A stretch of DNA of 64,000 bases from Leptogorgia sarmentosa (lineage: Eukaryota). The stretch covers positions 11,904,001-11,968,000 of the forward strand of contig OZ210885.1 in assembly GCA_964658305.1 (NCBI GenBank). The letters run 5' to 3'. The notes beneath the pieces were generated by a model that was not told the DNA's origin, did not search any database, and worked only from the letters and a program-made list of their open reading frames with translations. Each line of letters opens with the position of its first letter. The first letter of the stretch is position 1. This document shows positions 14,201 to 42,065 of the stretch, piece by piece. A program made the position numbers and the translations under genes.

Positions 14201-17200
14201 TAGCGCAACAAAAAACTTCGTTAGGACGATCAAAATTACAATTCTCTTTACATGTAATCAAGCGTGTTCTCAAATGTTGCCAAGCAGCAACACAGCTTTA
14301 TTCCTTTAGCTGAGCGAGAGCAAAAAACTCAAACGTTTTTTATGGATGTATTTTTAGTATATATGTATTTTTATTGTCTTTTTGTCAAACCAAAAAGTCG
14401 CGGGAGAAATTTAATAGCTAGATGCGTGCATTACGCTGTTATAATGCACGCTCATTAGCCAATCACGTTGCAGATTTTACCCTACTTATATTATAATGTA
14501 GAATAACCAAAAAATATGTTGAAATTTAAATTTGGAAAATCGAGGGATATGTGTCTTTTCCAACAAAAAATGTCTTGCGCACGAAATTTAAACGCTTAAA
14601 AGTCATTTTGAGTTGAGAAAACGGAAACTTTGTCGAGTTGTGTATTGCTTTTGAAAGTTTCAAGAACACTGGTTGAGTTTAAACCCTCGAAAACGTCGCA
14701 CAAACTTACGTTTTTTAGAATAATTAGCTTTTCGCATGCTTAATTTAGGCTTGCATACCTGTCTCTTGGTCTAAGACGCTGATTGAACCATCCATTAAAC
14801 CACAAATGGCCAGAGTACAGCCTGCAGCATTGGTCGTGGCTAATGAGGTTACGGACATATTAAACGTCTTTCGCGAAATCTCAGAGCCTCCGAGATCCAG
14901 ACACGAAGATTCCGGTAAAAGATAGCAGGTCTTCGTGCATGTTTCACGGAGTTGCTCTGATATCTTCTGTATCCACGGATACTCTTGATACGATTGCAGT
15001 CTACCTGGAAAATAAATATACACAACAGTCTTATGATATATCCTCGCAAAATCATAATATTAGGCCTACATATTATCGTTCTTGCCTTTGCAACTTATTG
15101 ATAGAAACTAGGGATCCAAGGATAGTGCAAAGTTTCTAAAGCCTAGGTCGAACGTCGAACTTTTCATGCGCTGAACCTAATGCAAATGAGCTCAAACAAA
15201 GAACTTGGCTCATTAACATTAGGTTCGGCACATGAAAAGTTCGACGTTTGACCTAGGCCTTAGAGGACATTAAAATCATATTTTTCAAAAGAAAACTAAG
15301 GAAACATTGTTGACGTGATACGAGAAAATAATCACTATTTTATTGTCTGGAAGCAACTGCCATCGCAGCAGCGCGCGTGTAAAGCAAATCAGATGAATCT
15401 CTGACCTCTGACCTTTTTGAAATTATATACACATCGTACTGGACAAATGATCTTAAAAGAGTTAAATCACAATGTGGCACGCTACTTCTGCGTCTTAATA
15501 AAATATCCGGTTTATTCACAGTATCAGGCCAACGTTAAATTTACTTTTGTATGCCTATATGTGGTTTAGTTCATTTAGTAACGAAAATTCTGTAAATCCC
15601 CGGTATTTTCGGGCAAACAAACAGCCCAAGCTTAGTGATGCCGTCGACCAGTGTTGTCGAGTCGGAGACAGCGAAAACAAACACGAAAGTTATAAATGCG
15701 AAAGCTCGCAAATATGTTGCCTATCATCAGCCAATTTAAAATATGTGACGAGTTCTACTGTGTTACACATTTTAGTTTGCCCGCAATGTCGGCCAACTAA
15801 ATTTTTAATATAAATACGCACGGCGGCTGTTAACAGTACTAAATTGTCCATGACAAATACAAGTTTTCTACTAATTCAAATCTCTAGATTCATTGCTGAT
15901 ATATAAAGAACATTTTAACTGCTTTATCAACGCATTCAGACATGTTGGCCACATTATATTATCATCACAGTCAGTGAATTACTGATTCACGGCCACACTC
16001 ATAGCGTCCGCCATATTGTGTAATTTCATTCCCCAGAAGTGCTGAGTTGCAATTTTTGCAAAAACTGAAATTCCGGAGGGGCGTCCGCCATTGTGTACTG
16101 TATTTCTGCGCTTCTTTGATCACATTTCACTTCTAACAAACTTTCATATCAATGAGAACAACTGCAAATAATGATGAGCAACGATATATAACTGCAATCG
16201 AATCATTTATGTTCAAACATTTCAAAGATATCAGTCAAATACCGAGTTGCGCATGTCAGGAGAATTTGGGACGCTCCCCTCGGAGTTTACACTATGAATG
16301 ACTGAATGACTACATGACTACATGACTGATGTGAATTTTCGCCACTCATCACAATACTGCAAAGTTTCTTTGAAACTTTGCACTAAAAAGTAAAACCTAG
16401 TCGCCCTTCCTAATTTACATTATATAATAAAATTACGATATTATTTCTTTGAAGAGTTTTAATTGGTTAAGAGCTGTGTATGAAATGGTTATATCCGTTC
16501 GCCAAAAAGGTATATGACATTTGGACATAATTTTCTCGTATATTGATAACTAACATACGACATTATTTTCTAAAATCTCGTGTATAATGGGAAATGTCTA
16601 TTATATTATTGAATTCGGCTCTCGTAGGACATGCGGAATTATCAGCTCTTTGCGTGTGCAGATAACACAAATCTCTGCTTCAATAATTGAACATTAATAG
16701 TAGACGAATTTTCAAAAACTTTCATTTCTAAGCGTCGTCGCGATTCATTGATTTTCACATAATGGGGCCATATAGGAAAATTCAGTTTGGGAATCGAGTA
16801 GATCTCGTGCGAATATCAGAGTTGGCATTTAAAAAATTCCTAATGTAAGACATACATAAATGGTCTCAGCCCGTTTATTTTCTTATAAACCAACGAGGAA
16901 TCTCAAACCGTCGAGTCGTTCTTCTCTGCAATCCATAATACCCTTTGAAGTATATTTCTACCGCACGATTGTTTCACGGAACTCAGACCCCGTCCACACT
17001 AGTGCGTTTTCGTTTGAAAACGCTGACATCGCCTGCTGAGCATGCTCTTTAGAGAAAAAAATGTGTGCCCGCATGCTCATCGGCTAATATAAATGCGAGT
17101 TTGTTTTGATCAAAACAGCACAGCTAAAACGCGCGCATTATTGGCTAATGTTAAAGTGTTACTGCAACGAATTTTTCGACCTCGTTTTTTTGCCTTAAAT

Positions 17201-20200
17201 AAATATTCAGGTCGAAAGATGAAATTTGGTGTATAGATGACTTTTGTACGTTCAGTGGAAGTAACTAAATTTCGCCTCCAAACTTCGATACCGGATGCGA
17301 CAAAAACAGCCGCCATTTTGTCACCTTGTGACGTCACAAGTGTAACACGTTTAGCGAAGCTACTAGTAAATTGTATTCTGTTAGAGCTATACTCTGTGTT
17401 TCTCGCGCTTTTTTGGCCGGAAAAAAATATCTTTTGAAACAAAACTTGACCATAGGCATTTTAAGACAATATATTCTGCTCATGTCGAGTAACGAGTCTG
17501 GCGGAGACCCGCAATCGTGTGAAAGTTCAAGTGAAACTGCATGACCCGGTGTCGGATGGCTGGTTAGTTCATGTCACATCGCACTGCTTTGCGTACGACG
17601 ACGAACCTATAGCAGAACCTGGGGAAACGATTTGTGTCCCAGAAGATCCAGATGGATAGTTGCCAGCAACTGTTGAACAAAGAAGCGACGGTAGAATAAC
17701 TCTGGATCAGTGATAAGTGAAGGTTCAAGACTGTTTAGACTTTAGCCTAATTAAAATAGCAGACGTAGGCTAAATTTGAATGTATATTTTATTGCTTTTA
17801 TTTAATATTCATCTGTAATGATATATTGTTAATTTTGGTATCAATATATTGATATCAGTATAATTATTGATTCCACATTGCCGTCTAAATATCTCAGAAC
17901 AAGTGTGTATGTAAAAGAGCCCAATTTTATATAGGCCCTTTCTTTTGGGCTTCCTTGCCTTCTATTTATTAAATTTGTAAATACTTAAGCTGTGGCAGAA
18001 TAAATTGATTTGATTTGATAAGGAAATTAGTCACAATTCATAGCAAGTTAATATTTAGCGATTTTGCTAACTCTAGATTCATATCATAGCACGAATCTTC
18101 GAAGTGAAGGCACGAGGTCGCCGTAACGTCAAAACCTGGGTTATGTTTACAGACAAATTTCACGCACTTATTCCGTCTCTGAGCATCTGTTTCTTCATTA
18201 AGGAATAGATGCATAGATACTCCTTCAGTTTTGCTATCATTGACGCAGCTAACTAAGTCAGGACCGCCAGCAACGCAGAGTTTTCCTCCGCGAGTAGCTT
18301 TACGTCTATTAGAAATATACGCCATGTTGACAATGTGTTACACTTGTGACGTCACACGGCATTAATATGGTGGTCGAAAATAGGGACATTTAGATATTCG
18401 TTTTTTGGCTGAAACGTCAAACCGCAAACGTGAACAAACCACGTGACTACATCCCAGCGGTTGCGTTTGCCGTATATTCTTGAGGTTTTCAACGACAGAA
18501 AAGGTTTTTCACGTTAGTCATTTCCCTCAAGCTTTTTATATCTATTTTGACGAATTATCTCGTGTAATTATAGTCTATTATTGTTGGTATACGTTTAGTC
18601 TTTAAATATAAATAATGACTGAGGTCGATTAAATCTTTTAAGCATGTTTATTTCTCGAATTTGAAGTGGTCACTAGAATAGCATGTATTCAAAATGGCTG
18701 CAATATATCGACAACTTATATATTAAAGTTGTATTGCATTTTATCAATAATATAACGAATATATTTTAACCACTTAAAATGTAGGAATAGTTTAACTATC
18801 TTTAAAGAATCTTGTTCTTTGGAATGCTATGTCAACAGAATTTTTTGAAAAAAACTGAAAAGTTCTAAAAACTAAATGCGAATGACGTGTTGTACGGCAA
18901 ACCGCTAACCGCAAACGACTAACCGCGGTTCGCGGTTAGCCGTTTGACGTCCAAGCCGGAAATCTAAAGGTCTCTAATGTCGCACGGAAGTAGCCAAAAA
19001 TCGCAACTTTGAAAGGCCATAAAATCCGTTTGAAAAGAGCAATTTTAATTCTGTTTGCGGTAAACATATTCGGAGAGTAAGTACTTTAAAATAAGCCAAT
19101 AAAAAAGGGGTCGAAAAATTCGTTGCAGTAACACTTTAAGCTTTTTATTCAACGTCTTTTGTCTTGTTTGTGCTCATTAAACAAACCAACTTTTCATGGG
19201 AATGTCTAGAAGGTTTCACGATCACGTTTTCTAGCATGTCTCAAATGTTTTATACATCATGACCTACTTTTGTAGATAAACGTTCACCTTTTATATTCGT
19301 ATTAAAATCATTGTTACTTAGCTGTAAACTATCATCGGATGTTGCTTTTGAACACTTTTGACACATTCCCAAGGTCATCTGCACTTTGATTCATACAAGT
19401 AAGCGTCTCAAAGGCGTAATTGTTTCATATATAATTTTTTCATAATTTCAGATAAGTCATAAGTTAGCATAGTTTCTCGATTACATAAGGCTCGCTGGCA
19501 AGTGAAGCGAGTGGCGATAACACGCTGGTTATTTCCTCGTCTTTTACTTTTAAAATCAGCTCACTGAAGAGTCAAGAGGTTTTCAGAAATGTCGTAAGGT
19601 TTGCTCTTCATTTTCTTCGATCGTATACGAACAACTCCTTGTGTGTTGGCACGAACTCATATAACGTTGTGCGACAGACACATTGATACGTATCGATCAG
19701 CCAGCTAATTATTTTCAATACATATGCAGCGCGTTGTGCACGTGTTCTGGTTTTATAATGATCTTTGGCAACTTACTCAACTGAGTGTATTTCCATATTT
19801 AGTGAGCCAATCATCTTGAATTACCCAAAGCATGCTTTACACGTGCTATACGAGGTACTGCGTCATGCGTTGACGCACGTAATGCGACGATTACATTTGC
19901 TGTGATCATGATTACAGCATTTACATTTTGTGGCCTTGTGGTAGTCAAACATTGCTAACCACTTCACTGATTGACGGCCCCACTCTAAGCGTTGGCCATG
20001 TTGTGTAGAAATTTTAATGCCCCGAATGAATGCTATGACATTGTGTACTCTAACTTGTGGGCTTCTTAGGTCACATTAGTGACATTACTCACCTAGCTTA
20101 CTTTTCTATTCATTAGAGTAACTGCAAATTTATAGCGATTTATAGCTACAATTGCATAATATTCGTAAGGATATCAGTCAATTATGGAGTTTGTACATGG

Positions 20201-23200
20201 CAAGATTTTGCGAAGCACCCCCATGCCCTCCCCCCCCCCGAGTTTGCACTATGAATGAATGACTGATGTGAATTTTCCCGACTCATCAAAATAATGCAAA
20301 ATTTCTTCGAAACTTTGCACTAAATAGTGAGGCAACTTAAACAAATCATAGAAGAATGAGATAAATTAAAGTCCAAGATTTTGGGAAGCACCCCCATGCC
20401 CCCCCCCCCCCCCTCCCGAGTTTACACTATGAATGAATGACTGATGTGAATTCTCCCCACTCATCAAAATAATGCAAAATTTCTTCGAAACTTTGCACTA
20501 AATAGTGAGGCAACTTAAACAAATCATAGAAGAATGAGATAATTTAGAGTTCATTATTTGAATTACCTAGGAGTTGAGGACAGATTGAATCTGGATTTTC
20601 GTTGATGACATCGGCAGAGAACATTAACGAGGATTTGAGAAGTTGGATTTCCTCCGATTCTGTGTCCACCAAACGAAAATCTGATATTACAGAGAATACG
20701 CTGACGTGTTTCACTTTTTGTTTGAGCCAGTGTAGATCAAACAGCAACTGGAGTAGTTCACCATGTCGTCCCGAAGAATAAATGTGATAGGGTAGGTACT
20801 TGAAATAATAGTCTCTTTGGCAGCAAGTTGAATTATCATTCCAATCACCATCCACGCACAGGGCACGAAGTGTCTTTACGAACTTATCCTGAACATCATT
20901 TAGTGTACCCATGTCTTGAAGTTTTGTCTGGGCAAAATCCAAAAGCAAGTCATGGACACGATAGCTTTTCTTTCCGTGGATTTCAGGCCCTGAAATTGGT
21001 CGAAATGTTAGGAAATTTGTACTAGAGACGGACAATTTTTGAAATCTCAAAATCGCCGTTGAGTAGTATAGAAAGAGTTGTGCTATCAGGTTTTCGTAAA
21101 TACGAAATGGCTTAGCCACAATAAGAATAATTACTGCCTATAGCGAGCCAAGAATAATGCAATATCTGTAAAAAGACACATAGACTTAAGGTAGTCCTTA
21201 ATCTAATTCCTAAAAAGCAAAGAATGTTTTTTAATTCACATGATTCGCCTTATTATTACAAAATATCAATAAAGAAATTACAATAGACACTACATGAAAA
21301 TAGAAGGCAGGGCTAACCCACAAACTCCAATAACGGGATCCTCCAATAAGTTATGTTCAGAACTAGTTGATACATTTACTAATAACATGAACTGGCTTTG
21401 ATTAATATTAAGCCCTGATCAAACGAGATGCAAGTCATCGCAAGTTTTAACTTCTGGGCCATGGAAACGAGGTAGCAAATGATTTGAAAAGTGTTGGATA
21501 AGCAGGCAATGGAGTCAAATTGTTTAAAAGACAAGAGTTATTTACGTATTATTCGCCTTAGATAACATTCTACCTTACGCCTTCTCCCTATATTTCTGTT
21601 AATGAAGTCTTAATGAGACCATTCATATCATTCAAAAGAATTCTAGACGGTTGTACTAGATGTCTATAGTTGGATGCAAGTATTACTCACATTCACTTCG
21701 TACTCTTCGTGTTTACATGCAAAATCGACTTGAAGCAATGAAAATACGCGGTTAAGACACGCACACGTTGTTCGGTTTGGATTTCCCGTCATTCCATGCA
21801 GGATGAAATCTTGATCCACTTTGCAACCTGTATTACTGGTTCACTGAATGTTGTAAATTTTCGGGACTAATGACAATACTGCAAAGTGAACTTCGCACTA
21901 AATATAAACATTTTTCGGTGGATTCCCAGATCAAAACTGTTATTATAAAACTATATATACCTTTTAGGATCAGCGACTTTCTCTCGAGCACAGCAAGTAT
22001 ATCTTTGTGTTTCTGAGGTTTGCGCGAAGTTTTTCCATTCTGGTTCTGTATCGAACACCACAGCAGCTCGAGTACATCTGACGGTATATCTGTATCCTCT
22101 GGAAATATAGCCAAATAAAGAAACATCTCGCGTACACTTTCGTCTAGGCGTTGGTAGCTCACATCAATGACTGCTAAGAGGTTATCATAAGGATAATCGA
22201 CTTTGGGAAATAATATACGAATTCTCCCCAGGTCAGCATTTTTAAGATCATCTAAAACATCCTCCCAGTCTTGTTCCGCACGAGTGTCTGTTAAATTTGA
22301 ACCCACCAGTGACAGAGCCAGCGGTAAACCTCGACACTGCTCTAACAGATCTGCAATAATTCGCCGTAAGTTTGGCGTTAACTGTTCGTCTGGACTTATC
22401 CCAGCGCTCTGATACAACAGCCCTAGGGATTTATCTTGTGGCATAATTACAAGTTCGTACTTGGTAATTCCCGAACCGCAGAGAACAGTAGCATCTCTAG
22501 TTGTTATTAATAATTGGCATTTACCAGATAAGCAATTGAATACAGCAGCGTCGTCCACCTTCCAAACATCATCAACAACAACCAAACAATCTTTATTAAT
22601 CTAAAAATGAGTTGAAAACTAGCTCAGAAACCGTATCTGTTAACTGCATTCAAAGGTTGGTAAAATTTACCACTCTTACTAGCCAAGGCCTTCAAAGGCT
22701 CGCTTGCAATTTTTTAGTGGCATTTTCTGGCCTTTCTGATATACGAGGCACATGTTCATGCATAGGTGGATTTATGACGAATGTTCTGATTTTATTATTT
22801 CTGAATTCCGCAACTGGTTTAGTCTTTCACCTCAATAATAAAACTCGCACTAGAAATCGGTGCAAAAATTGCAAGTGTAAAAGAGTCCCAGCTGCCATCA
22901 TCTCACCACCAATGCATGAGATGAATGAGGTTTTTTAACGAACTGAGAAAGTAGAGGTACTATTTATCATTTATAGACCCGGGGGCTACATATAATCGTC
23001 GAAATATTTCATGAAGACCTGATGGCTTTAGCCCAAGGGAAATATCATCACTGCATGAAGGAAATATTTCGACACATCAGTCGTATGCAAATATATATTG
23101 TTTTCGTTTAACAAGAATGCACGAGTTAAGAATTGTGCTTTATTTACAAATACTTACACGAACTGGCTGTACAACGCATGAGAAATTTTCAATACTGAAC

Positions 23201-26200
23201 AAGGCGAAGCCGGGTTAAAATGCTAAATTTATTTTAAAAATTAAAGACAAGTAATAAAGCTTACCGCCTGGGCAAGTGGTCGTGTGAAAGAAAAGACTCG
23301 GAAGAATTGCCAGTGCCACTATTATAGCTTTAACGTCCATCTAACATCAGACTTCTACATTTAACGTCGCTTTAATTTACGTTTACCAACGCTGTACCGG
23401 ATATATTTTTCTGTATTCGTGCAACTTGGCTATACGAGCTACATCCCATTAAAAATCGTCCCTATCTTGAAAATAGCCCTATCACATTTTCTCAAAAACA
23501 TCAAATATAGCACAGCATACATACCGTGTATTTTCTTAACCAAGATTGCGCTGCAACAATATCACTGAACGATACATCTCCACCAAGGACTCTGACGAGG
23601 GTGTTAATCAGTTTCAAGCGATCAGGTGTTTGACCAATGTCAAGCCAGACAACTTGACGAGATTTTGAGACTTCCCAGGCAACAGCTTGTGCTAACACCG
23701 TCTTACCGAGGCCTCCCATTCCACGGATACCAACGTCGCCACCATGACGTCCAACAACACCCACTTTATTTCCCTGCTTGAGTAACTCCAATATCTCGGT
23801 TACTTCTGATGGCCTTTCCACCATGTGAGCAGGTAGATTGCGTAATCCATACGGAACTAGAATATCGATTAAAAAATATAGATGATAATTTTGAAATCAC
23901 TCTGCTGCACGCTTCAAATAATTGTGCATACCAGAATGCATATTTGTATAATTTCAACTTTGAACATTAATTTCGTTCAATATTTTACGTCGCCCTGGCA
24001 TGAAAATCTCCTGCTACAGTTTGCAGTGTATTGTTACTGAAGTGAGTCTAAACTTTATTTAAACTTTACCAAGAAAAGCAATTTGTAGTGTGCTTTACAA
24101 TTATTGATGAGAAGTTTCTACGTTGTGGCGGTTCCTATTTGGTCGTTTATGCGTGCGCGCGCAGAAGGTGCTAATTGGTACAGTCTTTCCTCACCACCTG
24201 TACTGCAGGGTGAGAGAACTTGGAGTACGGTATGATTTTGAAGTGCTGTCCACTGAGTGCAGTGGTGATATAAAGATATGTAATATCAAACTACCATTCC
24301 TAATCATCGAGGTCACTCGTGCATACTATATCGAAATTGCATTCGAAACCATGCCAATATGTACCTATACAAATAAGAATTAGACATTCTAGGGTATGAT
24401 TCGGCTTCTGGACAGCCGACTTTCATTGTATATATCGCGCTATAAACATCATTTACAGCATGGATTTTTAGAAAGTAGTACAAACGAACAGTGACATCTC
24501 GGCAATCAGAGCCTCTAAAGTAACAGAAGTGGCAACCAGCAAGCTGGCCAGTCTCTTCATACAAGTCACATAATTTTGCCGACAGAACACTTTTCCTAAC
24601 GCCGGGACCTCCATTTAGGATCATAACTCTCGATTTCGTATCGCGAAGCCATTTTTCAAAGTCGTCAAAGAACCATTGTCTGGTCCCTTCTTGAAATTTT
24701 CGAATAAGCTAGTCAATCTTTCCATTAAATACAAATTTAGTTAATTTTTCAGAAGATTTTTCTACCACATTTCGCAACTTGACAACTTGGCTTTCAACAT
24801 TGACTGCTGAATCTCCTATTAATGAAGCATTTTAGGACATAAATCAAAAGAAGCATTTAACTACTATCAGCAACATTTAAGCATTCATGTCGCAATTGAG
24901 CTGCATCAACTTTTCACGAGCGTTTTTTATTTGGTTGTGACCTACGCAGTTAACCCGCCCAACATTAAAATTCATTTTTAGTGATGATGAGTGCGACAGC
25001 GCGTACTGCACTGCCAATGCTTTCGGATTCCCACTAAATCTGGGAAGTGTTAGAAGACATATTGCATTCCTGTTGCCGTTTACTCTAACGAGATATTTTC
25101 CTACAAGAAATTCTTAGAAAAAGAACGTTGAAGACCGGGAAGGTTCGTGGGGGACAAATTTTGAAAATTGAATGGCTGGCTGACAGTGTGTAAATTTTTT
25201 CTGCATAATATATTTTGCATAAATAGTTTCCATCTTTCCTAGTTAATTGAAACACTACCTTTTCTCTCTGCAAAATCTGAATGCTCCGTCCTCGGCTTTT
25301 TCTGACGACATTCGATTTCATCTGTTTTCTCCGCCAGACGTTTAAGCTCCATTGAATGATGTTCAAATTTCTCTGCTGCAGACCTTTCAACCTCTTTAAT
25401 TTTGCGAAGCAGTGTGGATTGTATGTTATCGAGTTTCTCCATCACTGGATTTATCTGAATAGATAAAATTGATTTAGTAAATTCAATTTACGGGCTGAAA
25501 CAAATTTGAAATCACCCTCAACTTCACAAAGCGGGTTAAGGTGTGTGATGTAATAATAGTTATAATCTGACGTTATTAGTATAGGTAATTGTATGGTTTC
25601 GAGTGCAATTTGGAAAAAACATTCACGAGCGAGTTTTTCTCGTTTTGTTCGGCCGCTAATATACGAAGTTGTTTCGCTTGTCCACCGAGCACTTGCTTGA
25701 ACGAAGAGAAATCTCTGTCTCGTATTATAAAAAGGTTGTCATCATCGACTGCTGTTAATATCACTTTTAAGCTGTCAGCTTCATATTCATCGACGTTTCT
25801 TTTTTTAATTCGCAGTTTTCGTTCAGCATAAAAACAATCGAGCAAAATATCTAATCTAACACCTCTTGCGGAATATTTTGTATCTCGCGCTGTATTTCCT
25901 TTTCAATGCACCATTTTCTCCGCACAATCAACCAAATGACTAGATATCTTTGGTGGTATTTTCATTTTTCGAACTATTTTTAAGCCCTTATATCATTTGT
26001 CTGTTCCTAAAAGAATCTACCCAAAGAGGCAGCCATTTTTTCATCCTCGAATAATTTCATATTTTGTTATTGTTCGCCAGAAATGGCTTAATCTGATTGG
26101 CTAGCTTTGTAATCTCAGCAAATCAGAAGGCATAAACATCTGAAGAAATTTGCACTGAATTTCTTTTTTTTTGCACTGAATTTCCTTTTTGCCACTGTAT

Positions 26201-28736
26201 TTCCTTAATATTGCACTGCTCTTAGCAATTCAGAATCGTGAAATTTTTTCATGTATATTATTAGATTAGAGATTAAGATGAGTATGTAAATTAATGAGAC
26301 AATATATATGAGGCGAGGACAGAGTTCGTTGTGCTGTGGACGACCAGACAAGTAAAGAGGGCAGAGTCACAAGGATTCGAGAAGATTTAGTTGGAATTGA
26401 AAGCGTGTATCGAGGTGACTGAAAACAATCTTAGGCGAGATGAGTAAAGTAAAATTGTTAGTTTCTGAATGAAAAAAAGGTGACGAAGCGTAACTAGCGT
26501 GGCCTGCGTGGGGTGAACTAAGTTCCAACACTGAAAAGAATCAACTACGGTCTGATATCCTGAAGTTTAAAGACAGTCGTTCTATACTTGGAGTGCTTTG
26601 GCAAACTGAAAATAAAACTCTCAGTCGATAAACGATGGAGTTATATCCACCTCTCGCCCAGCAACGCCGAGAAACCGAAGCCAGTCGCCTATACAGTTAA
26701 TTCCCAAAATTTAATTCCCAAAATTCCTAAATAGAATTACTGAAGGAAAACTTGAAGGCAATTACCGAGCAAGTCCAGAATCCTTGGGACAGAAACTACG
26801 CATTGTGGCTAGCTGAAGACAGATGACGGAAACTCTGTGGACTTGTTTTGTTTGAACTGCGACGCAAAATTGCTTCGCTGATCTTTTACGGGCTACCCAC
26901 ATGTGAGTTGTGCGTACCTATTTTTTCCTCTCTTATAAATTGGCCCTTTTTTCTCAAAATTTTCAAATTGCCATCGAATAATTTTTACGTCACTGTGAGG
27001 ACGAAATATTTCAATGCTTGGTCGACACAGATGTAAAGTCGAATACGAGCTAAAATTCTTGTGACGACATTATACATAAGGTCTATTGAAATTTGATATG
27101 CAAGTTTCCTAGTTTAAACTTTTCAGAAATTTGTAGTTCAACGTTTAAATAGCAATTTTGCAAGGAAAAATAATTGTTATCTATCAAAATTTATGTTTAT
27201 CTCTTGTCTATAAGAATGACTCAATTGTTTTGCTTAATGGGGTATTTATATTACAGTATTTAACAGTAATTGATATGTAGTGTGTTTTATTCATCGGTAC
27301 ACGCTTCGTGTACTCGCTCGCATTTGAAAGATGTCTTATATTAATTTGAACAGCGTCTTCCTACTTCTTCAACGACTGTTAAATGAAACAACAAAAGTTC
27401 GTCAAACCTTTGTGGCGTCCAAATCGCAGTTTTTGATACAACGGCAAAGTTCAGCTACACTTTCTGCAATTAGTTTTGCGTGACGACTATCAACAAGAAT
27501 GTCTGGAAATAATGAAGAAAACTTATCTTGAGTATCACAAACACTATAAATACATCGCTGCTAATGCGCGTAGCACGAAGGGTACATGAAAAAGCATGCC
27601 TTGCTGTCCATATATTTGATAAACATGGTCTGCTGTGGCTATTAGCAAACTTCAATAGGCGGCCAGTGTAGTAGGTAGGGGATATACAACCTCAGCAAGC
27701 AGCACATGTCATATACCCACTACTTAAACAATGCAAACAGGTTGGACGTTTTGAGTAAAGTTGATTTTTCCGTCGGGAATGGACCAATTGCACAATAGAC
27801 AATTTTTAGAAATTTCGAAATAGTACAATTCAGAGCAACAGAGTTAAAGAGCAATACAAAGTTAGTAAAATTGTAAAGTTTGGTTGAGAAATGTTGTAAA
27901 ATATGTATATTTTAGTAGAATTTGTTGTAATTTTGTATATTTTAGTATAATACCCATGCAAAATTTATATCCGTATCGAGAAAAGTCTACAATTAACTAC
28001 ACTAAAATGAAAAAAAATTGGCAAAATTGCGTTAAACATTCCCTAGTTTATTCGACTTTTGAATGATTGAAGTTTTGATTTGAAATGATCTGCGCAAAAC
28101 ATATTTAAAGGCATGATGAAATTCCGGCAATAATGCTAATAATACAGTACCTGTTTTATTCCAGAAATCTAGTTCATCACAAATTATTTTTTTGTCAGCT
28201 TCTGGTAAATTTAACAAATTGACTAAAGATTTCATTCCTTGAAACGAGTCATTGAACATATGTAGTGTCCATTCAGAGATGTTACAATGAGCCCATGGGT
28301 TTCTGATGTCCGACCTAACTTTCTTTGCTTCAGCTGCAGCACCCGAAGATACGAAAGGAGCTGCCTTGCCGATAATAGTTAAAAGTGCTGACATATCCAT
28401 GGTTTCATCAAATCCAGTGATATCTGCAATAAAATCGGTGACGAGTAGTCTCGCCAACGAGACAGGATCTTTAACAGCATAATCATAAGCTGATTTAGTA
28501 GGCTTGTGGATAATGTTGTTGTTAATGTTGTGATATTGTAGATTATCGGTGGAAGGGGGTAATTTCTTCCTTCTGTATGCTGCGAAATCTTGCTTGTGAA
28601 TTTCATCAGGTGGTTGGCATAAAGAATGATACCATATCCCAAGTTCAGTGGCGACAACTTTCCTCAATGCAGGTGCAAGAACTTTGGTAAAGGCAATGCC
28701 AACTAAAACCCAATGTTGTTCTTCCTTTGACATCAT
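733..28736 (-). CDS. Multi-exon STAND/NLR-like gene: HEPN-like N-terminus, coiled coil, APAF-1-type NB-ARC, WD40 repeats; 3' end not resolved
   Basis: Exons with AG/GT boundaries and compatible phases: 28736-28151, 27502-27408, 25454-25259, 23856-23525, 22600-21961, 20989-20567, 15004-14759, 7536-7318, then ~5228-4973 and 976-733. Motifs: Walker A GMGGLGKT, Walker B VVVDDVW, LLITTR, GLPLAL, VHD, QLLG|RL, WD repeats. The phase at the 7318 to 5228 junction does not match, so an exon may be missing. Confidence 0.85.
2017..2352. mobile_element. hAT-like MITE
   Basis: Imperfect TIRs CAGTGGCGTAGGA / TCCTATGCCCTTG and an 8-bp TSD TTTCAGAG at 2009-2016 and 2353-2360. Confidence 0.75.
2860..4870 (+). 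mobile_element. Putatively autonomous Crypton element in an intron, antisense to the host gene
   Basis: Recombinase ORF followed by a ~150-bp terminal inverted repeat (4715-4867). Both ends resemble the short element at 16425-16690. Boundaries approximate. Confidence 0.75.
3035..4291 (+). CDS. Crypton-type tyrosine recombinase (DUF3504 / KCTD1-ZMYM-QRICH1-related)
   Basis: Intronless ~419-aa ORF with FYAEVRKKDG, RRGRQNLR, YTNHSIRAT and SGHKSESSLKSY, giving the R...HxxR...H...Y catalytic set. Confidence 0.88.
   Translation: MASSKERFADLGEAEIRKLLEDRDSVNTKKSTKGSKAIFEEYLREKKLHHPENSEELASVLKSFYAEVRKKDGSEYTKNSLCSLRFGLNRHFKSVFNYDIIKDKEFDEANSVYEAQCVYLKKRGLAKTEHKPPIADEDIKKLYESGVFNTDSPATLQNKVFFEILFFFCRRGRQNLRQLKKDDFAIKINAQGQRCVVKKSDELTKNHRVNDAQAEEGGMMVANDSPYCPVYSFEKYLTHLNPLNEFLFQRPKRCSPSDGIIWYDNMVVGENTLGKKMKVLSKEAKLSVEYTNHSIRATTITILDRNGYEARHIMSVSGHKSESSLKSYTKTGELTKSRMAGCLSSAIDSSEHHIAETPSNAINPDMSALATVSENNDEVGPLLTSSQEELIMRDFSFQTTTQTSKQYNFYNCQVNFKA
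4973..5228 (-). CDS. WD40 exon
   Basis: TKDGQFIATVG...TIKLWK...LVGHTDWVTCV; donor G|gtatgc. Acceptor position uncertain. Confidence 0.8.
5620..5861. repeat. Long palindrome, probably a non-autonomous Crypton-like hairpin element
   Basis: TTTTACCGGGGTTTCCAAACACGCGAGAATAATTGAATTAAC... mirrored by ...GTTAATTCAATTATTCTCGCGTGTTTGGAAACCCCGGTAAAA. Confidence 0.7.
7318..7536 (-). CDS. WD40 exon
   Basis: LQGHSGVVSCLAASQSGTILASGSWDGSTILW; donor G|gtaagc. Confidence 0.88.
9709..9994. mobile_element. PIF/Harbinger-like MITE with incomplete right TIR
   Basis: GGCCCTGTCCACACGTATCCGG ... CCGGATACGTGTGGAC with internal GTCCACAC repeats. Confidence 0.55.
10239..10754. mobile_element. MITE with ~90-bp TIRs and a 7-bp TSD (P-like), nested in the Kolobok-like element
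   Basis: CA...TG ends; CTTTTGT duplicated at 10232-10238 and 10755-10761 and single at the empty site in copy 2 (17241-17247). Confidence 0.8.
11051..11104 (+). ncRNA. Minimal type I hammerhead ribozyme of Penelope pseudo-LTR type
   Basis: CTGATGA (11055-11061), stem II GTGTGGCAAGC/GCTTGTCATAC, GAAA (11087-11090), palindromic stem III CAAATTTG, then the GTA cleavage triplet and AATAAA. Stem I is short and imperfect. Confidence 0.8.
11164..11243. repeat. (TA)n microsatellite
   Basis: Long TA run and a second short run; another short TA run at ~10971-10983. Confidence 0.95.
12132..13044. mobile_element. TIR element inserted without a TSD inside the Kolobok-like element
   Basis: TIR CATGGCCAGAAATGAAGGACA / TGTCCTTCATTTCTGGCCATG. 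The flanks rejoin exactly to the empty site TTAGCGAT|TTTGCTAA seen at ~18055-18070. Confidence 0.75.
14003..14170. repeat. Long imperfect palindrome (Crypton-like hairpin element, probably extending to ~14497)
   Basis: GTCGCGTGCCATTATGCTGTTATAAT ... ATTATAACAGCATAATGGCACGCGAC around a central GAGGCGTAGCCG. Confidence 0.65.
14759..15004 (-). CDS. Exon joining the helical domain to the first WD40 repeat
   Basis: GRLQSYQEYPWIQK...LLPESSCL...ICGLMDGSISVLD; 246 nt, phase 1 to phase 1. Confidence 0.8.
15139..15260. mobile_element. ~120-bp palindromic MITE
   Basis: GCCTAGGTCGAACGTCGAACTTTTCATG ... CATGAAAAGTTCGACGTTTGACCTAGGC. Confidence 0.7.
16425..16690 (+). mobile_element. Degenerate non-autonomous relative of the Crypton at 2860-4870
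   Basis: Shares AAGAGTTTT(G/A)ATTGGTTAAGAGC with the Crypton left end, and ATTATTGAATTCGG..CTCGTAGGA...GCAGATAACACAAA with its right-end hairpin. Confidence 0.65.
17155..19135 (-). mobile_element. Kolobok-like non-autonomous element, copy 2, with THAP remnant
   Basis: TTAA|AGTGTTACTGCAACGAATTTTTCGACC ... GGTCGAAAAATTCGTTGCAGTAACACT|TTAA; THAP-like ORF 18038-18325 ending ...CLHFEDSCY. Confidence 0.82.
18383..18974. mobile_element. TA-flanked MITE nested in Kolobok-like copy 2
   Basis: TA|GGGACATTTAGAT ... ATCTAAAGGTCTC|TA; absent from the equivalent site in copy 1 (~13370). Confidence 0.7.
20201..20543. repeat. Tandem duplication of ~170 bp in an intron
   Basis: CAAGATTTTG(C/G)GAAGCACCCCCATGCCC...GAAGAATGAGATAA occurs twice; a diverged relative lies at ~16260-16390. 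Confidence 0.85.
20567..20989 (-). CDS. NB-ARC exon 3 (MHD-type motif and APAF-1-like helical domain)
   Basis: YRVHDLLLDF...YYFKYLPYH...LLFDLHWLKQK...QLLG; 423 nt, phase 1 to phase 1. Confidence 0.9.
21961..22600 (-). CDS. NB-ARC exon 2 (Walker B, sensor, GLPL, winged helix)
   Basis: CLVVVDDVW, LLITTRD, CRGLPLALSLVG, SYQRL, LAIFPED. Confidence 0.92.
23525..23856 (-). CDS. NB-ARC exon 1 (P-loop)
   Basis: VPYGLRNLPAHMVERPSEV...VGIRGMGGLGKTVLAQAVA...WLDIGQ; canonical splice sites. Confidence 0.9.
24497..24815 (-). pseudogene. Disrupted, truncated NACHT NTPase exon
   Basis: Phase-1 acceptor, then ...FNGKID*LIRKFQEGTRQWFFDDFEKW...RVMILNGGPGVRKSVLSAKLC...AGCHFC. In-frame TAG at 24709-24711, Walker A GK changed to RK, similarity ends after ~DCRD. 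Confidence 0.8.
25259..25454 (-). CDS. Coiled-coil linker exon
   Basis: INPVMEKLDNIQSTLLRKIKEVERSAAEKFE...; acceptor ctattcag, phase-1 donor AAAG|gtagtg. Confidence 0.7.
25570..26260 (-). pseudogene. Degenerate Crypton/DUF3504 remnant
   Basis: Peptide LDCFYAE...RIKKRNVDEYEADSLKV...IIRDRDFSSFKQVL...AKQLR parallels LKSFYAEVRKKDGSEYTKNSL...IIKDKEF of the intact recombinase. Confidence 0.6.
27408..27502 (-). CDS. Small linker exon (DILVDSRHAKLIAESVAELCRCIKNCDLDATK)
   Basis: Acceptor ttatttccag and donor AAG|gtttga. Its 95 nt bridge the phase-1 donor upstream to the phase-0 acceptor at 25454. Not in the ORF track. Confidence 0.65.
28151..28736 (-). CDS. First coding exon: helical domain with HEPN-like RNPWAH motif
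   Basis: Part of ORF 28032..28790. Reads MMSKEEQHW...FDETMDMSALL...KVRSDIRNPWAHC, with donor G|GTACTG at 28151. RxxxxH motif at 28287-28304. Confidence 0.75.
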
Positions 28737-29489: not shown

Positions 29490-32400
29490 TGACCTTTTAA
29501 TGATAGAAATGTTGCTGAAGATATAATATAGTTTTTAATGAAATTTGTAAACAAAATTGCGCGAGGGTACACACTACCAGTATTGAAGTTTGCTTTCCTA
29601 TGAATTTAAAGGCCTCGTCGAAATCTAATCATAATTAAGAACAGGAAATTTGCGATACAGACTGTAAGTTGTCAAATTGCAATGCAATTAAGGTCCGTCT
29701 GCGTGTTGTTTGGCTCTCTGGTCATTGCATGTTCAAGTCTGAATAAGCTCAGTTCAATTTAGGATTTTCAGTAAATCGTGCCACGTAGCGCTGTATGTCT
29801 AATGCAAGACATGCCAATGACTGAACATTCGCCGGAGTCATACGTCTCCATGATATAATAACCCCAAGAATACACTGCAGATAGTAATGAAAAGCTTTTT
29901 ATAGCGTTCAATAAATATAATTAATGATTTATGATCCCGACCTTTTCAGATCAAAACGTTTGAAATGATATCTAGTTTTAGGAGTATCTTGTCTGAAAAA
30001 TTTAAGTGTACAACATACAAACAACCGCTCTTGCTTGACGAATTGCTTAAACTAAGTGGTGTGTGAGGTGTTTATATGTGTTCACGAAATCACAAAATAA
30101 AGCAAGACATCGACATACTTCAAGTTCACGTTTATTTGGCATTTTGTTGCAGACGCATGATATCGTGCTTTGAAAGGGAATTTGCAATGTGACATTTTAC
30201 AACGTTACTCTGCAAACTGGAAATAATTTCGAAACATTTTCGTAATATCACCGATCGAGTGTTAAAATCTTTTGAAAGAAAAAGCCATTCTGTATTCATT
30301 TTGTGTCACATAACTCAACGCCGTCATATCTCGCGAACGTTCTAGCAATTCTGTTTGCGGGTTTCACTTGAATGGTGCTTGGTCGAAGAACAATATAACT
30401 CAGCAAGACAGTCACATGTGACATTTACGTGGGAACAGAAAGCCGCAATGATTAGATTAGCGTCAGCAATAATGAATATAAATATAACTGATAGCACAAT
30501 TTACATGGTTTTTTTCTCGACAGCAGCGCTTATTTCAAGCTAAAGTTTATGCAAATTAGGGTAAATCTTTTTAATTAAATACAATATGAAACTGCACTAT
30601 GGTCGTTGTGAAACATCCAAGATCGTTTAGGTCACCATGACATTGTCAACATACATTTGCATCTGGAATATTTTATGTTTCAACTCTGATTCTAATAAAG
30701 CAATGAAATACTTGCTTTCTATGAGATGACAGTTGATCAGTACTATAAAAACCATGCGCAGATTCGACTTTTCGAACAAAGGCTCTTCGTCGAGTAAAAT
30801 ACAATCCTTGTTGAGTGGATCTTCCGCTGCACTTGATGCTATTATTCGTCAGACTAAACCTAAGTTAAACGATGAACTCCAACAAAAGGCGTTCGCTCCA
30901 AATATTGAAACTGATTAATTGCATCGTTTAGGTAGTGAGCAAAACCCTTTCTGGTGTTTGCTGTTGTGATCCGCTACCTGCACTGGCGCGCCGCATATTG
31001 AATATTTCCTTACACACTACTCGGTAAAAATAATTCAGTGATAATAAATTTGATGAATTCTACTCACCACAAGACATTCTGTGTATAAACTACATGAAGC
31101 TGAAGCAAGTTGCTGTTTAAGCTTCGGGAAAATTGTTGCAAAGTGTAAAGTAATGCATGTTGGGTTTCATGCAACAAAACAGTACATTGAAATGATTTCT
31201 GTCACAATAATAAGACGTCTGAACGACCAATACAAGCTTACCCTATGAAGGAAAATATCAAAATGTTTTTCGCCTGACATGAGTTCGTAGCTTTACACCA
31301 GGGCACAATGCAACTCAACTTATTTTTAATTCGTCATGAATTTAAAATCATTCGGTTTTATTTCCCTCTTCTTAGGAAATATAATTATCATATGAATGAA
31401 AAATTAAAGACAGTTCGTATATTAAATTTCGCAAAGATTTTGGCAGTTAAATACCCATCGCAATGAAGTAGATGTTACTGTGATTTTCAGGCATACGTCA
31501 TGTGGGAAAGAGTTTGGTAGATATACGCGCAACAATTTTAAAACTAAAGCACATATATCTTACATTCCTTTAAACAACCCCATAAGCTCCCATAGTTCGT
31601 TTACTTGCATGCTGTCAGTCAATTTAATCTCAGTCTTTGTTTTATGTTAGACGCAATCTATCAACTCTTACAGACTGAAATGTTGCCAATCATATACTAT
31701 AGTTTTTAATGAAACTTGTAAACAAACTTGCGTGAGGTATACACTGCTAGTATTGAAGTTTGCTTTCCTATGAATTTGAATTAGTCAAGAACAGTAAATT
31801 TGCTAACAGCGCTACAGACTGAGCGTTGCTAAGGTGCAGTTATATCGCTGAAAACCTGAAAGCAATAAAGGTCCACCTGTTGTTTGGTCCCTGGTTATTG
31901 CATGCTCAAGTCTGTATTGAATAAGCCCGAAGTGAGGATGGAGGCTGCTTTGTTTGGCAATGCTCAATTCAATTTAGGATTTTCAACAAATCGTGCCAAG
32001 TAGCGCTGTATGCATGACATGTCAGCGATTGAACACGCACCAGTCATATGTATGTTCACCATGATATAACCACCCAAGAATCAGTCCAGATAGTAATGAA
32101 AAGCTTTAAAGCATTTAATAAATAATGATTCATGACCTCAGCTTTTATAAAAAGATCAAAATCTTGTCTAGTTTTATCAGTATCTTGTCTGAATAAATTA
32201 AGTTTAATTTACAAACAAGCGCTCTTGCATGACAAATACCTTAGATAAACTAAGTGGTGATATGAGGAGTTTATGTGCAATACAAGGCTCACGAGATCAC
32301 AGATAATTAAAAGTAAGAGCGACATAGAACACCCTCACATAACCTGAGACAATATTACACGAATGGTAGAAGCGTAAAGGCATGTTTGTTTGTTATTGTG

Positions 32401-35400
32401 TTGCAACGTCATCAGATGGATATTGTGCTTTGAAAGGAAATTTGTAATATGGCATTTTGTAACGTTATTGTTCAAACAGGAAAAAGTTTCAAAACTTTTA
32501 TTAGTACTCACCGAATGTTGAATTCGCAATAATGTTAAAAGGGCAAACGCTTCTGTATTCAACTTGTCGTCACATATCGAGAACGTTCCAGCAATTGTGT
32601 TTGCGGGTTTCACTTGAATAATGCTGGGTCGAAGAACAATATAACAGGAAGACACTCATGTCACAAGTTGCGTGGGAGCAAAGAGCAGCAATGATTACTT
32701 CAGGTTGAACAGAATTAGATTTAGAGATTATTCAATTGTATAATATTAGCTGGATTTAATATTTAGCTCTTATTCAAAAGCGATGTCTGAACGACCAATA
32801 GAAACTTGCCGTATGAAGTAAAATACCAAAATATGGTTCGTTTTTGATGAGTTCGTAGCTTTACAGAAACGCACAATACGACACAACTTGTGTTGTCACT
32901 AAGTGAAATTGTTTTTAATCCGTCATGAATTTAAAATCATCGGGTGGCATTGTCCCTGTTCTTGGGAAATATAATTATCATATGAATGTAAAATTAAAGC
33001 CAGTTCGCATATGAAATTTCGCAAAGATTTTGACAGTTCAATACCAAGGATCACAGTGAAGTAGATGTTACCGTGATTTTCAAGCATAAGTCGTGTGTTA
33101 CAGAGGGAAAGAGTTTTGTAGATATACACGTGAGAATATTAAAACGAAAGCACATATCCTACATTCCTTTGAAGAACCCCACAGTTTGTTTTTTGAAATA
33201 TTTTTAATATCTCCACTGCACGACAAATTGCTTTGGGTTCATTTCAATGTATTGAATTTTGTCATCCTGTGGTATTGAGATTCTGCCAAGGTAATTTACA
33301 CGATAAGATTTGTATTGTAGCGTATGGAATGCATGCAGTAAACGTGCGTGAATACAATGAAATGCCGTCGTAACGTAATCAACAGGTAATGAGAGATCAC
33401 CACTCTTTTCCATAAGTCAGAACACGAATCGTATAAGATATTCGCATCGTGTGGATGGGCCTTTATAAATTTATTTCAGTGCAGCTACAATTTTTATAGC
33501 ATGATATTGAGATTGCATGTGTTATCTGTCTTGGGACATTCGGTCCATATTGCACTATATTAGACAAAAAATATGCATGTAGTACACTGGAGGGCCGAGG
33601 GCATAATAAACAATCGCAGAAACGTCCGCTATAATACAATTTACATGCATGCTATCAGTCGATTTAATCTCAGTCTTGTCATTGATTAATTAACAGTGAA
33701 TGTTTTATGCTGGAAAGAATGTATCAACTTTTACGGACTGAAATGTTGCCAATCATATACTATAGTTTTTAAATGAAACTTGTAAACAAACTTGCGTGAG
33801 GTATACACTGCAATATTGAAGTTTGCTTTCGTATGAATTTGAAGACTTCGTCGCAACCTAATTAGTCAAGAAAAGCAAATTTGCTAACAGCGCTACAGAC
33901 TGAGCGTTGCTAAGTTGCAGTTACATCGCAGAAAACCTGAAAGCAATAAAGGTCCACCTGTGGTTTGGTCCCTGGTTATTGCATGCTCAAGTCTGTATTG
34001 AATAAGCCCGAAGTGAGGATGGAGGCTGCTTTGTTTGGCAATGCTTAATTCAATTTAGGATTTTCAACAAATCGTGCCAAGTAGCGCTGTATGCATGACA
34101 TGTCAGCGATTGAACACGCACCAGTCATATGTATGTTCACCTTGATATAACCACCCAAGAATCAGTATAGATAGTAACGAAAAGCTTTAAAGCATTTATT
34201 AAATAATGATTCATGACCTCAGCTTTTATTAAAAGATCCAAATCTTGTCTAGTTTAATCAGTATCTTGTCTGAATAAATTAAGTCTAATTTACAAACAAT
34301 CCCTCTTGCATGACAAATATCTTAGATAAACTAAGTGGTGATTTGTGGAGTTTATGTGCAATACAAGGCTCACGAGATCACAGATAATTAAAAGTAAGAG
34401 CGACATAGAACACCCTCACATAACCTGAGACGATATTACACGAATGGTAGAAGCGTAAAGGCATGTTTGTTTGTTATTGTGTTGTAACGTCATCAGATGG
34501 ATATTGTGCTTTGAAAGGAAATTTGTAATATGACATTTTGTAACGTTATTGTGCAAACTGGAAATAGTCTCAAAACTTTTATTATTACTCACCAAATGTT
34601 GAATTCGCAATAATGTTAAAAGGGCAAACGCTTCTGTATTCAACTTGTCGTCACATATCGAGAACGTTCCAGCAATTGTGTTTGCGGGTTTCACTTGAAT
34701 AATGCTGGGTCGAAGAACAATATAACAGGAAGACACTCATGTCACAAGTTGCGTGGGAGCAAAGAGCAGCAATGATTACTTCAGGTTGAACAGAATTAGA
34801 TTTAGAGATTATTCAATTGTATAATATTAGTTGGATTTAATATTTAGCTCTTATTCAAAAGCGATGTCTGAACGACCAATAGAAACTTGCCGTATGAAGG
34901 AAAATTCCAGAATATGGTTCGTTTTTGATGAGTTCGTAGCTTTACAGAAACGCACAATACGACACAACTTGTGTTGTCACTAAGTGAAATTGTTTTTAAT
35001 CCGTCATGAATTTAAAATCATCGGGTGGCATTGTCCCTGTTCTTGGGAAATATAATTATCATATGAATGTAAAATTAAAGCCAGTTCGCATATGAAATTT
35101 CGCAAAGATTTTGACAGTTCAATACCAAGGATCACAGTGAAGTAGATGTTACCGTGATTTTCAAGCATAAGTCGTGTGTTACAGAGGGAAAGAGTTTTGT
35201 AGATATACACGTGAGAATATTAAAACGAAAGCACATATCCTACATTCCTTTGAAGAACCCCACAGTTTGTTTTTTGAAATATTTTTAATATCTCCACTGC
35301 ACGACAAGTTGCTTTGGGTTCATTTCAATGTATTGAATTTTGTCATCCCGTGGTATTGAGATTCTTCCAAGGCCATTTACACGATAAGATTTGTATTCTA

Positions 35401-36779
35401 GCGTATGGAATGCATGCAGTAAACATGCGTGAATACAATGAAATGCCGTCGTAACGTAATCAACAGGTAATGAGAGATCACCACTCTTTTCCATAAGTCA
35501 GAACACGAATCGTATAAGATATTCACATCGTGTGGATGGGCCTTTATAGGTTTATTTCATTGTACTATTTTTATAGCATGATATTGAGATTGCATGTGCT
35601 ATCTGCCTTGGGACATTCGGTCCATATTGCACTATATTAGACAAAAAATATGCATGTAGTACACTGGAGGGCCGAGGGCATAATAAACAATCGCAAAAAC
35701 GTCCGCTATAATACAATTTACATGCATGCTATCAGTCGATTTAATCTCAGTCTTGTATTGATTAATTAACAGTGAATGTTTTATGCTGGAAAGAATGTAT
35801 CAACTTTTACGGACTGAAATGTTGCCAATCATATACTATAGTTTTTAAATGAAACTTGTAAACAAACTTGCGTGAGGTATACACTGCTAGTATTGAAGTT
35901 TGCTTTCGTATGAATTTGAAGACTTCGTCGCAACCTAATTAGTCAAGAACAGCAAATTTGCTAACAGCGCTACAGACTGAGCGTTGCTAAGTTGCAGTTA
36001 TATCGCTGAAAACCTGAAAACAATAAAGGTCCACCTGTTGTTTGGTCCCTGGTTATTGCATGCTCAAGTCTGTATTGAATAAGTCCGAAGTGAGGATGGA
36101 GGCTGCTTTGTTTGGCAATGCTCAATTCAATTTAGGATTTCAACAAATCGTGCCAAGTAGCGCTGTATGCATGACATGTCAGCGAATGAACACGCATCAG
36201 TCATATGTATGTTCACCATGATATAACCACCCAAGATTCAGTACAGATCGTAATGAAAAGCTTTAAAGCATTTATTAAATAATGATTCATGACCTCAGCT
36301 TTTATAAAAAGATCCAAATCTTGTCTAGTTTTATCAGTATCTTGTCTGAATAAATTAAGTTTAATTTACAAACAAGCGCTCTTGCATGACAAATACCTTA
36401 GATAAACTAAGTGGTGATATGAGGAGTTTATGTGCAATACAAGGCTCACGAAATCACAGATAATCAAAAGTGAGAGCGACATAGAACACCCTCACATAAC
36501 CTGAGACGATTTTACACGAATGGTAGAAGCGTAAAGGCATGTTTGTTTGTCATTGTGTTGCAACGTCATCAGATGGATATTGTGCTTTGAAAGGAAATTT
36601 GTAATATTGCATTTCCTAACGTTATTGTGCAAACTGGAAATAGTTTCAAAAATTTTTATAGTACTCACCGAATGTTGAATTCGCAAAGATGTTAAAAGCT
36701 TCTGTATTAACTTCTACGACGTAAATAAATGTCGTCACATATTGAGAACGCTCCAGCTTTTGCGTTTGTGGGTTTCACT
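29490..36779. repeat. ~2.08-kb non-coding tandem repeat (about 2.5 similar copies from ~31600 plus an older diverged copy)
   Basis: Near-identical short ORFs recur at offsets of 2081 (32335/34416, 32923/35004) and 2076 (36492). A diverged copy of the same sequence lies at ~29490-31570. Confidence 0.9.
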
Positions 36780-41952: not shown

Positions 41953-42001
41953 TTCTGGCATGGAAGTCAACCCCAGGCTCTTAGAACCTATTCCCCGGCA
42001 C

Positions 42002-42065
42002 GTCTCCCATGGCAACGTTTACGAACTTGGATACGTCTCCATGGCAACGTCCCCGGTTTTTATAA
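42002..42065 (+). promoter_or_regulatory. Paired RFX X-box-like motifs followed by a TATA-like motif (repeated at +7352 and +14704)
   Basis: GTCTCCCATGGCAAC (42002-42016) and GTCTCCATGGCAAC (42035-42048) fit the GTNNCC-N(0-3)-RGYAAC X-box pattern; TTTTATAA follows. Confidence 0.55.

Follow-up and report, generated by a model that had tools for sequence, protein, structure and literature searches.

An intact Apaf-1-like gene with a HEPN-like head in Leptogorgia sarmentosa, and a decaying NACHT fragment that was probably never its partner

Gene content of the locus

The window, by which we mean the whole stretch of 64,000 nucleotides of Leptogorgia sarmentosa DNA analysed here (contig OZ210885.1 of assembly GCA_964658305.1, positions 11,904,001 to 11,968,000), carries on its minus strand a gene modelled in ten exons, with GT-AG borders and matching phases at every junction (Table 1). 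Joined end to end, the exons yield 1057 codons with zero stops, in the order HEPN-like domain, coiled coil, NB-ARC and WD40. In a Pfam scan, exons 4 and 5 scored above the cut-off for NB-ARC, exon 6 matched APAF1_C and exons 8-10 matched WD40; the motifs of the NB-ARC module are intact throughout (Walker A, Walker B, sensor 1, GxP as GLPLAL and the MHD-like motif as VHDL). The gene is intact and encodes an Apaf-1-like NB-ARC-WD40 STAND protein, in which the APAF-1 helical domain is followed by WD40 repeats. The same scan of exons 1-3 returned neither a CARD nor any other match, and the protein thus lacks the N-terminal CARD expected of a true Apaf-1 orthologue. The coiled coil of exon 3 is likely, judging from its sequence and from an aligned repeat in the relative P0001, and the phases and open frame suggest that exon 3 is likely spliced to exon 4.

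A first-pass annotation of this DNA had confined the gene to 23525..28736 and read it as a coiled-coil exon ending in phase 1 at 25259, an exon with a dead NACHT domain, and a phase-1 acceptor at 23856 opening an intact APAF-1-like NB-ARC, with an open frame if the NACHT exon were skipped. The outer elements of this reading stand, as a GT donor is present at 25259, the Pfam match and the motifs agree on the NB-ARC, and the frame that skips the NACHT piece is open over the full length of the model. The gene extends far beyond the interval first assigned to it, reaching position 752, and likely continues past base 1 of the window; the relative P0120 is 650 aa longer.

Table 1. Features of the window, with coordinates as positions in the 64,000-nucleotide stretch
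Feature	Position	Strand	Description
Exon 1	28151..28736	-	HEPN-like effector domain, motif R145-N-P-W-A-H150; phase-1 end; 67% to P0001
Exon 2	27408..27502	-	linker helix; GT-AG, phase 1 to 0; 20/29 residues identical to P0001
Exon 3	25259..25454	-	likely coiled coil; phase-1 end, GT donor
NACHT piece	24496..24820	-	325 bp in intron 3; spans the linker and ends shortly after Walker A; Pfam NPHP3_N E 7.7e-11
Exon 4	23525..23856	-	NB-ARC start, intact Walker A GMGGLGKT; phase-1 AG before 23856
Exon 5	21961..22600	-	NB-ARC (Walker B LVVVDDVW, sensor ITTR, GLPLAL) and winged helix
Exon 6	20567..20989	-	VHDL motif and APAF-1 helical domain; Pfam APAF1_C E 1.1e-11
Exon 7	14759..15004	-	linker to propeller; GT-AG; tblastn of P0001 E 5e-21
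Exon 8	7318..7536	-	WD40 repeats (Pfam, tblastn of P0001, GT-AG)
Exon 9	4973..5182	-	WD40 repeats; 5' boundary picked by phase and homology
Exon 10	752..976	-	WD40 repeats (Pfam, tblastn of P0001, GT-AG)
Recombinase frame	2981..4291	+	436-codon open frame, DUF3504 and Phage_integrase matches; tyrosine-recombinase transposon, located in the intron that separates WD40 exons 9 and 10
Short frames	18337..18041, 13329..13096	-	two similar frames in introns 6 and 7; resemble remnants of THAP-type transposons on visual inspection
Tandem repeat	31600..36779		~2-kb unit, 94% identity, upstream of exon 1
Reverse-transcriptase array	40381..64000	+ (ORF)	~3 head-to-tail copies, period 7352 bp; RVT_1 E 2e-12 at 43776-45488 and in the repeats

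Several mobile or repeated elements share the window. The tyrosine-recombinase transposon is presumably Crypton-like. In the reverse-transcriptase array, each copy adjoins ~2 kb of CCCTAA-rich minisatellite with a strong C skew, and the interval 42916-50267 is identical to the copy that follows it; we take the array to be possibly telomere-associated or a Penelope-like retroelement, and it is also possibly a duplication of the assembly. A second DNA source that covers the introns (contigs from three runs of one sample in one study, sharing 39-44% of the window's words) contains joints that skip 16082-20039, suggesting a polymorphic 4-kb insertion.

The HEPN-like head

The domain encoded by exon 1, referred to below as the head, is conserved at R145 and H150, kept in 70 and 72, respectively, of 76 aligned rows; these form an RxxxxH motif of the HEPN Rx4-6H type, near the C-terminal helices. 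When its relatives were taken into profile searches, 36 of 76 matched HEPN_Swt1 at E<=1 (best 9.7e-7) and 25 of 76 matched DUF4559 at the same threshold (best 3.9e-9), and by Atlas features the head scored 0.97 against clusters in which 11% of members have HEPN_DZIP3 or DUF4559. The predicted structure is an all-helical model, a confident helical bundle with a pLDDT of 96.7. A Foldseek search of this model against the PDB gave no match at E<=0.001 (AbiF appeared with TMq 0.36 at E 5.1 and Csm6 at E 2.5), and a profile search of PDB sequences with the head found nothing relevant. On features and weak profile matches, the head resembles the HEPN families of the Swt1/CXorf38/DZIP3 type; we call it HEPN-like and predict that it is an RNase.

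A search with the head recovered 341 relatives at E<=0.001, on a variety of bodies. A Pfam scan of 52 long relatives (51 matches of >=330 aa drawn from 149 new matches, plus P0238) identified nSTAND3 in 15, NB-ARC in 5, NACHT in 3, NPHP3_N in 2, Roc/COR in 2, AIG1 in 1 and a kinase with RNase 2-5A in 1. The same HEPN-like head was seen in P0360 and P0237, on a protein with kinase and Ribonuc_2-5A domains and directly before a DZIP3-HEPN domain; the former carrier has what we take to be an RNase L/IRE1-like tail. A Gly just after the end of the head domain is present in 70 of 75 aligned relatives, which would fit a conserved phase-1 donor and a cassette exon. Among carriers with a known NTPase, the heads closest to that of the window are those of P0001 (67% identity), of P0002 and P0003 (58%), whose architecture is NB-ARC/TPR/beta-helix, and of P0120 (56%).

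The NACHT fragment in intron 3

The piece of NACHT coding sequence in intron 3 is visibly damaged. It contains an in-frame TAG at 24711-24709, its Walker A reads GGPGVRKS with a G-to-R change encoded by AGG at 24597-24595, and its homology ends at 24496, ahead of a Walker B that is missing. At the changed Walker A position, 97 of 108 relatives of the piece have G, 2 have R and 1 has E, with 8 not parsed. P0021 is one of the two that share the R, and the change may therefore predate the insertion. A quick tree groups the piece with P0008, its closest relative (73% identical), and with P0021 (SH-aLRT 88, 91). P0008 itself starts in a shifted frame, and a metagenome scan with it found no locus.

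All 108 relatives are NPHP3_N/NACHT proteins, 97 of them with a precomputed PF18738 (HEPN_DZIP3) domain, and by sequence the piece is nested in a DZIP3-HEPN-NACHT-WD40 family. Many relatives of ~1350 aa sit on contigs of tens to hundreds of kb, and other proteins recovered in the searches (P0123, P0124, P0235 and P0236) read through splice sites into intron-like sequence; together these observations suggest that the relatives were called in ORF fashion and that the genes are probably single-exon. In 104 of the 108, the chain runs at least 50 residues upstream of the point matching the acceptor proposed at 24815, and a DZIP3-type hallmark is found there in 102. This family was considered as a source of exons 1-3 and rejected, as those exons carry no PF18738-type head and none of the 108 relatives matches them (E<0.01). 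A family HMM compared with the exon 1 relatives was likewise not significant, and in a profile-profile comparison the DZIP3-HEPN domain and the head reached a probability of 37%.

These observations bear directly on the fusion proposed by the first-pass annotation, in which exons 1-3 are native to a NACHT receptor and were newly joined to an Apaf-1-like body that was headless or differently headed. The order and phases of the pieces agree with such an origin, and heads of this family are found on some NACHT proteins in other settings (5 of the 52 long matches, counting NACHT and NPHP3_N together). However, the piece's own family bears a different head, and the heads of NACHT-type carriers are only 30-39% identical to that of the window and lie in another part of the head tree, a quick tree of 38 selected head-bearing proteins. 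The particular NACHT type of the piece, NPHP3_N, occurs on just 2 of 157 head-bearing proteins, with heads ~30% identical, and a grouping of the window head with these two carriers was rejected (p-AU 2e-46). The junction of head and body, moreover, is present in two relatives, P0001 and P0120 (the latter encoded by L001), which largely refute a new fusion, as detailed in the next section; we regard this origin as very unlikely.

The AG before 24815 is phase-compatible with exon 3 and would let the NACHT piece be read in frame, and a splice from 25259 to 24815 would encounter the stop at codon 328. With 7 pyrimidines among the 15 upstream nucleotides, it ranks 33rd of the 79 AGs in intron 3, whereas six acceptors of the gene scored in the same way have 9-13 of 15. 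It also falls within the I-G codons of a stretch that reads IGDS in the uninterrupted P0021. This in-frame, phase-1 AG lies ~5 nt inside the left edge of the piece, and from the 79 AGs in 1402 nt the chance of such a placement is roughly 0.1-0.2. The in-frame stop, the Walker A mutation, the truncation and the in-frame phase-1 AG reported for the supposed NACHT exon are all present, but the designation of 24815 as a real acceptor, and as the next one after exon 3, is not confirmed. It might still be imagined that the piece serves as a poison exon, whose use would lower the level of a dangerous RNase-headed receptor or yield a head-only product; the compatible AG, the early stop and the presence of the piece in the other DNA source would all suit this role. 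Against it stand the weakness of the acceptor, the lack of a convincing donor at the 3' end of the piece, and, in contigs of the other source, stops and frameshifts that differ, a pattern to be expected of neutral decay; we consider such a role decidedly improbable.

The contigs of the other source also speak to the physical reality of the insertion. Although the family appears multi-copy in those runs, a circumstance that can mislead assemblers into placing a NACHT piece in intron 3 by a false join, contigs of this non-identical source bridge both ends of the piece (24439-24710, with 3 differences, and 24712-24853), and an assembly join is scarcely credible. Within the piece, some contigs read CAG in place of TAG, and others have changes of -1, +2 and +6. 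Further contigs contain 24821-25030 and diverge at 24820, and one contig of 1378 nt connects 24930-24829 with 24824, perhaps across other intervening sequence; these contigs hint that there are related copies whose insert is longer or different. No clear target-site duplication was found at the ends of the piece in the window sequence, and the only notable match of intron 3 to the rest of the window is one of 64 bp inside intron 2.

Age of the exon 3-4 junction

The model can be aligned over its full length, at 59% identity, with two relatives: P0001, a protein of 1205 aa from a contig of 4084 nt, and P0120, which has 1709 aa. Across the junction of exons 3 and 4 the alignment is colinear, the window's SDFAERK, from exon 3, followed directly by VPYGLRNL, corresponding to SDFSKKKVPYGLRNL and SPFAEQKAPYGLRCL in P0001 and P0120; the core, SDFAERK joined to VPYGL, faces SDFSKKKVPYGL in a relative. 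The nucleotide record L001 encodes P0120 letter for letter, with flanks of 192 and 282 nt. In blastn, eight window exons match it as abutting blocks, which shows that L001 is either spliced or free of introns; the NACHT piece is absent from it (best tblastn E 0.53). Between the window and L001, dS is 0.80 overall, with 1.44 for exons 1-3, 0.77 for exons 4-6 and 0.54 for exons 7-10, and the corresponding dN/dS values are 0.27, 0.26 and 0.60. Judged from these sequences, the exon 3-4 junction is old, being common to two relatives at 59% identity and a dS of ~0.8.

The NACHT piece is younger. In simulations of neutral change, mean identity to the ancestor fell to 0.44 at 0.4 changes per site and to 0.56 at 0.27 (half the dS of exons 4-6 and of exons 7-10, respectively), and identities of at least 73% persisted only up to ~0.15-0.2 changes per site. 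The piece is 60-73% identical to its relatives, a figure that includes the relatives' own divergence. The comparison of simulated with observed identity indicates that the piece lost function after the window and L001 lineages had split, and that it cannot be a relic of the founding fusion. The claim that the gene had been caught in the act of swapping its NTPase module is not supported on either count, as the junction is shared with P0001 and with P0120/L001 and the piece is too little decayed.

Origin of the head and exchange among paralogues

Bodies of the same type occur with other heads, namely tandem DED-type heads in P0116 (PF01335) and, judged alike by eye, in P0117-P0119, and Death heads in P0121 and P0122. 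The DED-, Death- and HEPN-headed bodies are all joined at about the same position, between K and VP(Y/F/H)GL. The ORFs P0123 and P0124 begin from intron-like sequence at about this point, which suggests an old intron at the NB-ARC junction. In an NB-ARC tree built without the partial P0125 and without vertebrate Apaf-1, the window, P0120 and P0001 form one clade (100/99), and a single clade of DED/Death-headed bodies that excludes the HEPN-headed ones had a p-AU of 0.037, in a test that, like the other one-clade tests, was named after the trees had been seen. The HEPN-headed clade is nested among DED/Death-headed bodies, and the HEPN head is therefore likely the derived state. The nearest named relatives of the gene are from Dendronephthya and Xenia. 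The more general proposal of effector-domain shuffling consequently survives in part: a HEPN-like head does sit on an Apaf-1-like body at this intron, on a body that elsewhere bears DED or Death heads, but its derivation of the 5' exons from a NACHT-type receptor is not supported, as the NACHT relatives lack these exons and the head's nearest carriers with a known NTPase are NB-ARC proteins.

Head and body of the window gene also disagree about their closest paralogue. The head is nearer P0001 than P0120, whereas exons 4-5 are nearer P0120; informative sites divide 58 to 18 before aa 261 and 96 to 104 after it. In a max-chi-square analysis, 2 of 1000 permutations reached the observed split, and each region rejects the grouping favoured by the other (p-AU 0.033 and 0.002). 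The best breakpoint lies inside exon 3 (aa 261-277; Fisher p 7e-7), intron 3 being nearly as good (p 2e-5); relatedness in exons 6, 8 and 9 follows a third pattern. From these conflicting trees, paralogues have likely exchanged 5' modules near exon 3/intron 3, in an analysis of three sequences that does not name which of them is the recombinant.

Such mosaicism could be read as a swap in two steps, in which a HEPN-headed paralogue gained an entire NACHT body in intron 3, with the AG of the I-G codons serving as a new acceptor, and its 5' part, together with the first 325 bp of that NACHT, later recombined onto the NB-ARC body of another paralogue. The split between head and exons 4-5, the higher dS to L001 in exons 1-3 than in exons 4-6, the in-frame AG of suitable phase at the edge of the piece, the youth of the piece and the CAG found in some copies would each be expected on this account. 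Weighing against it, no chimera of head and NACHT was found among the 108 NACHT relatives or the 157 head-bearing proteins, the acceptor is weak, the best breakpoint falls inside exon 3, and the third pattern in exons 6, 8 and 9 is what general mosaicism among paralogues would give, with the recombinant not nameable from three sequences. We think this course of events unlikely. In a broader form of the same idea, intron 3 would be a recurrent point of STAND module exchange, at which a HEPN RNase cassette replaced a death-fold head and paralogues kept swapping, with the NACHT piece as the scar of a recent head-NACHT chimera of short duration, left by an NB-ARC-to-NACHT swap that was later undone; to this we also attach a low probability.

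Our preferred reading, which we consider probable, is that this intact gene belongs to an old family of Apaf-1-like proteins with HEPN heads, likely one of octocorals, and that the NACHT piece is a younger, unrelated and decaying fragment that was never its partner. An Apaf-1-like ancestor with a DED/Death head would have acquired, at the phase-1 intron that precedes the NB-ARC exon, a head made of a HEPN-like domain and a coiled coil, for which the NB-ARC/TPR/beta-helix family is the most likely source; 5' modules would later have been traded among paralogues near exon 3/intron 3; and repair or transposon capture would then have brought a piece of a NACHT gene into intron 3, where it decayed. 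DZIP3-HEPN-NACHT genes are abundant in octocorals, and stray pieces of them are thus to be expected.

Relation to known systems and implications

Exchange of the head at the start of the NB-ARC has precedent in invertebrate homologues of CED-4/Apaf-1, in which, in the sections of the source drawn on here, the CARD of Apaf-1 is replaced by CARD pairs, Death, DED or TIR domains (Zmasek et al. 2007, PMC2246300). The window gene shares with these homologues the body of NB-ARC, APAF-1 helical domain and WD40 repeats, and differs in that its head is a predicted RNase of the HEPN-like type followed by a likely coiled coil; a HEPN head is not among the Apaf-1 head types given in those sections. Its NB-ARC region is 53-63% identical to octocoral proteins, namely the Dendronephthya 'APAF-1-like' P0117 and P0118 and the Death-headed P0121 and P0122 of Xenia.

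Fusions of HEPN domains to STAND NTPases are also known in animals. DZIP3-HEPN-NACHT genes are described as abundant in octocorals, with 83 in D. gigantea (PMC8260672), DZIP3-HEPN heads are placed on many coral NACHT/NB-ARC proteins (PMC10236652), CXorf38/Swt1-like HEPN domains are fused to NACHT and DEATH in cnidarians (PMC3710099), and N-terminal shuffling is documented in NLRs (PMC3879445). The window protein resembles these fusions in placing an N-terminal HEPN-like RxxxxH domain on a STAND NTPase, and the NACHT piece in its intron itself belongs to the DZIP3-HEPN-NACHT-WD40 family; unlike them, it has a head without a Pfam match of its own, remotely DZIP3-HEPN-like, on an Apaf-1-type NB-ARC-WD40 body. 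A third comparison is with the HEPN-like/NB-ARC/TPR/beta-helix/MYND proteins (P0002 and P0003 of Dendronephthya; P0004 and P0005 of Mytilus), which have a head of the same family and then a likely coiled coil, but differ in NTPase subfamily (24% identity to the window NB-ARC) and in sensor domains. The HEPN-like/NB-ARC/TPR/beta-helix family is the likely donor of the window head. We found no paper that describes HEPN with APAF-1 and WD40 in anthozoa, though supplementary tables may list HEPN-NB-ARC-WD40 proteins (Additional files 15-17 of PMC10236652; Supplementary Table 5 of PMC8260672). The combination of domains is unusual but not unprecedented, and publications already describe the shuffling of heads in STAND proteins of invertebrates.

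By analogy with established STAND and HEPN biology, the WD40 propeller is predicted to sense a ligand, upon which the NB-ARC would exchange nucleotide and oligomerise, and the HEPN heads, paired by the coiled coil, would form a composite RNase site of the RxxxxH type. The output would be RNA cutting in place of caspase recruitment, in an antiviral or cell-death role. An apoptosome-type sensor with an RNase output would resemble the wiring of bacterial STAND-nuclease defence proteins. Bodies of at least six kinds, with NTPase, GTPase or kinase domains, carry a head of this family, yet no Pfam model recognises the member in the window, and counts of receptor domains in corals therefore likely miss this family. 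If the predicted function is true, an octocoral-type Apaf-1-like lineage would have traded caspase recruitment for direct RNase output.
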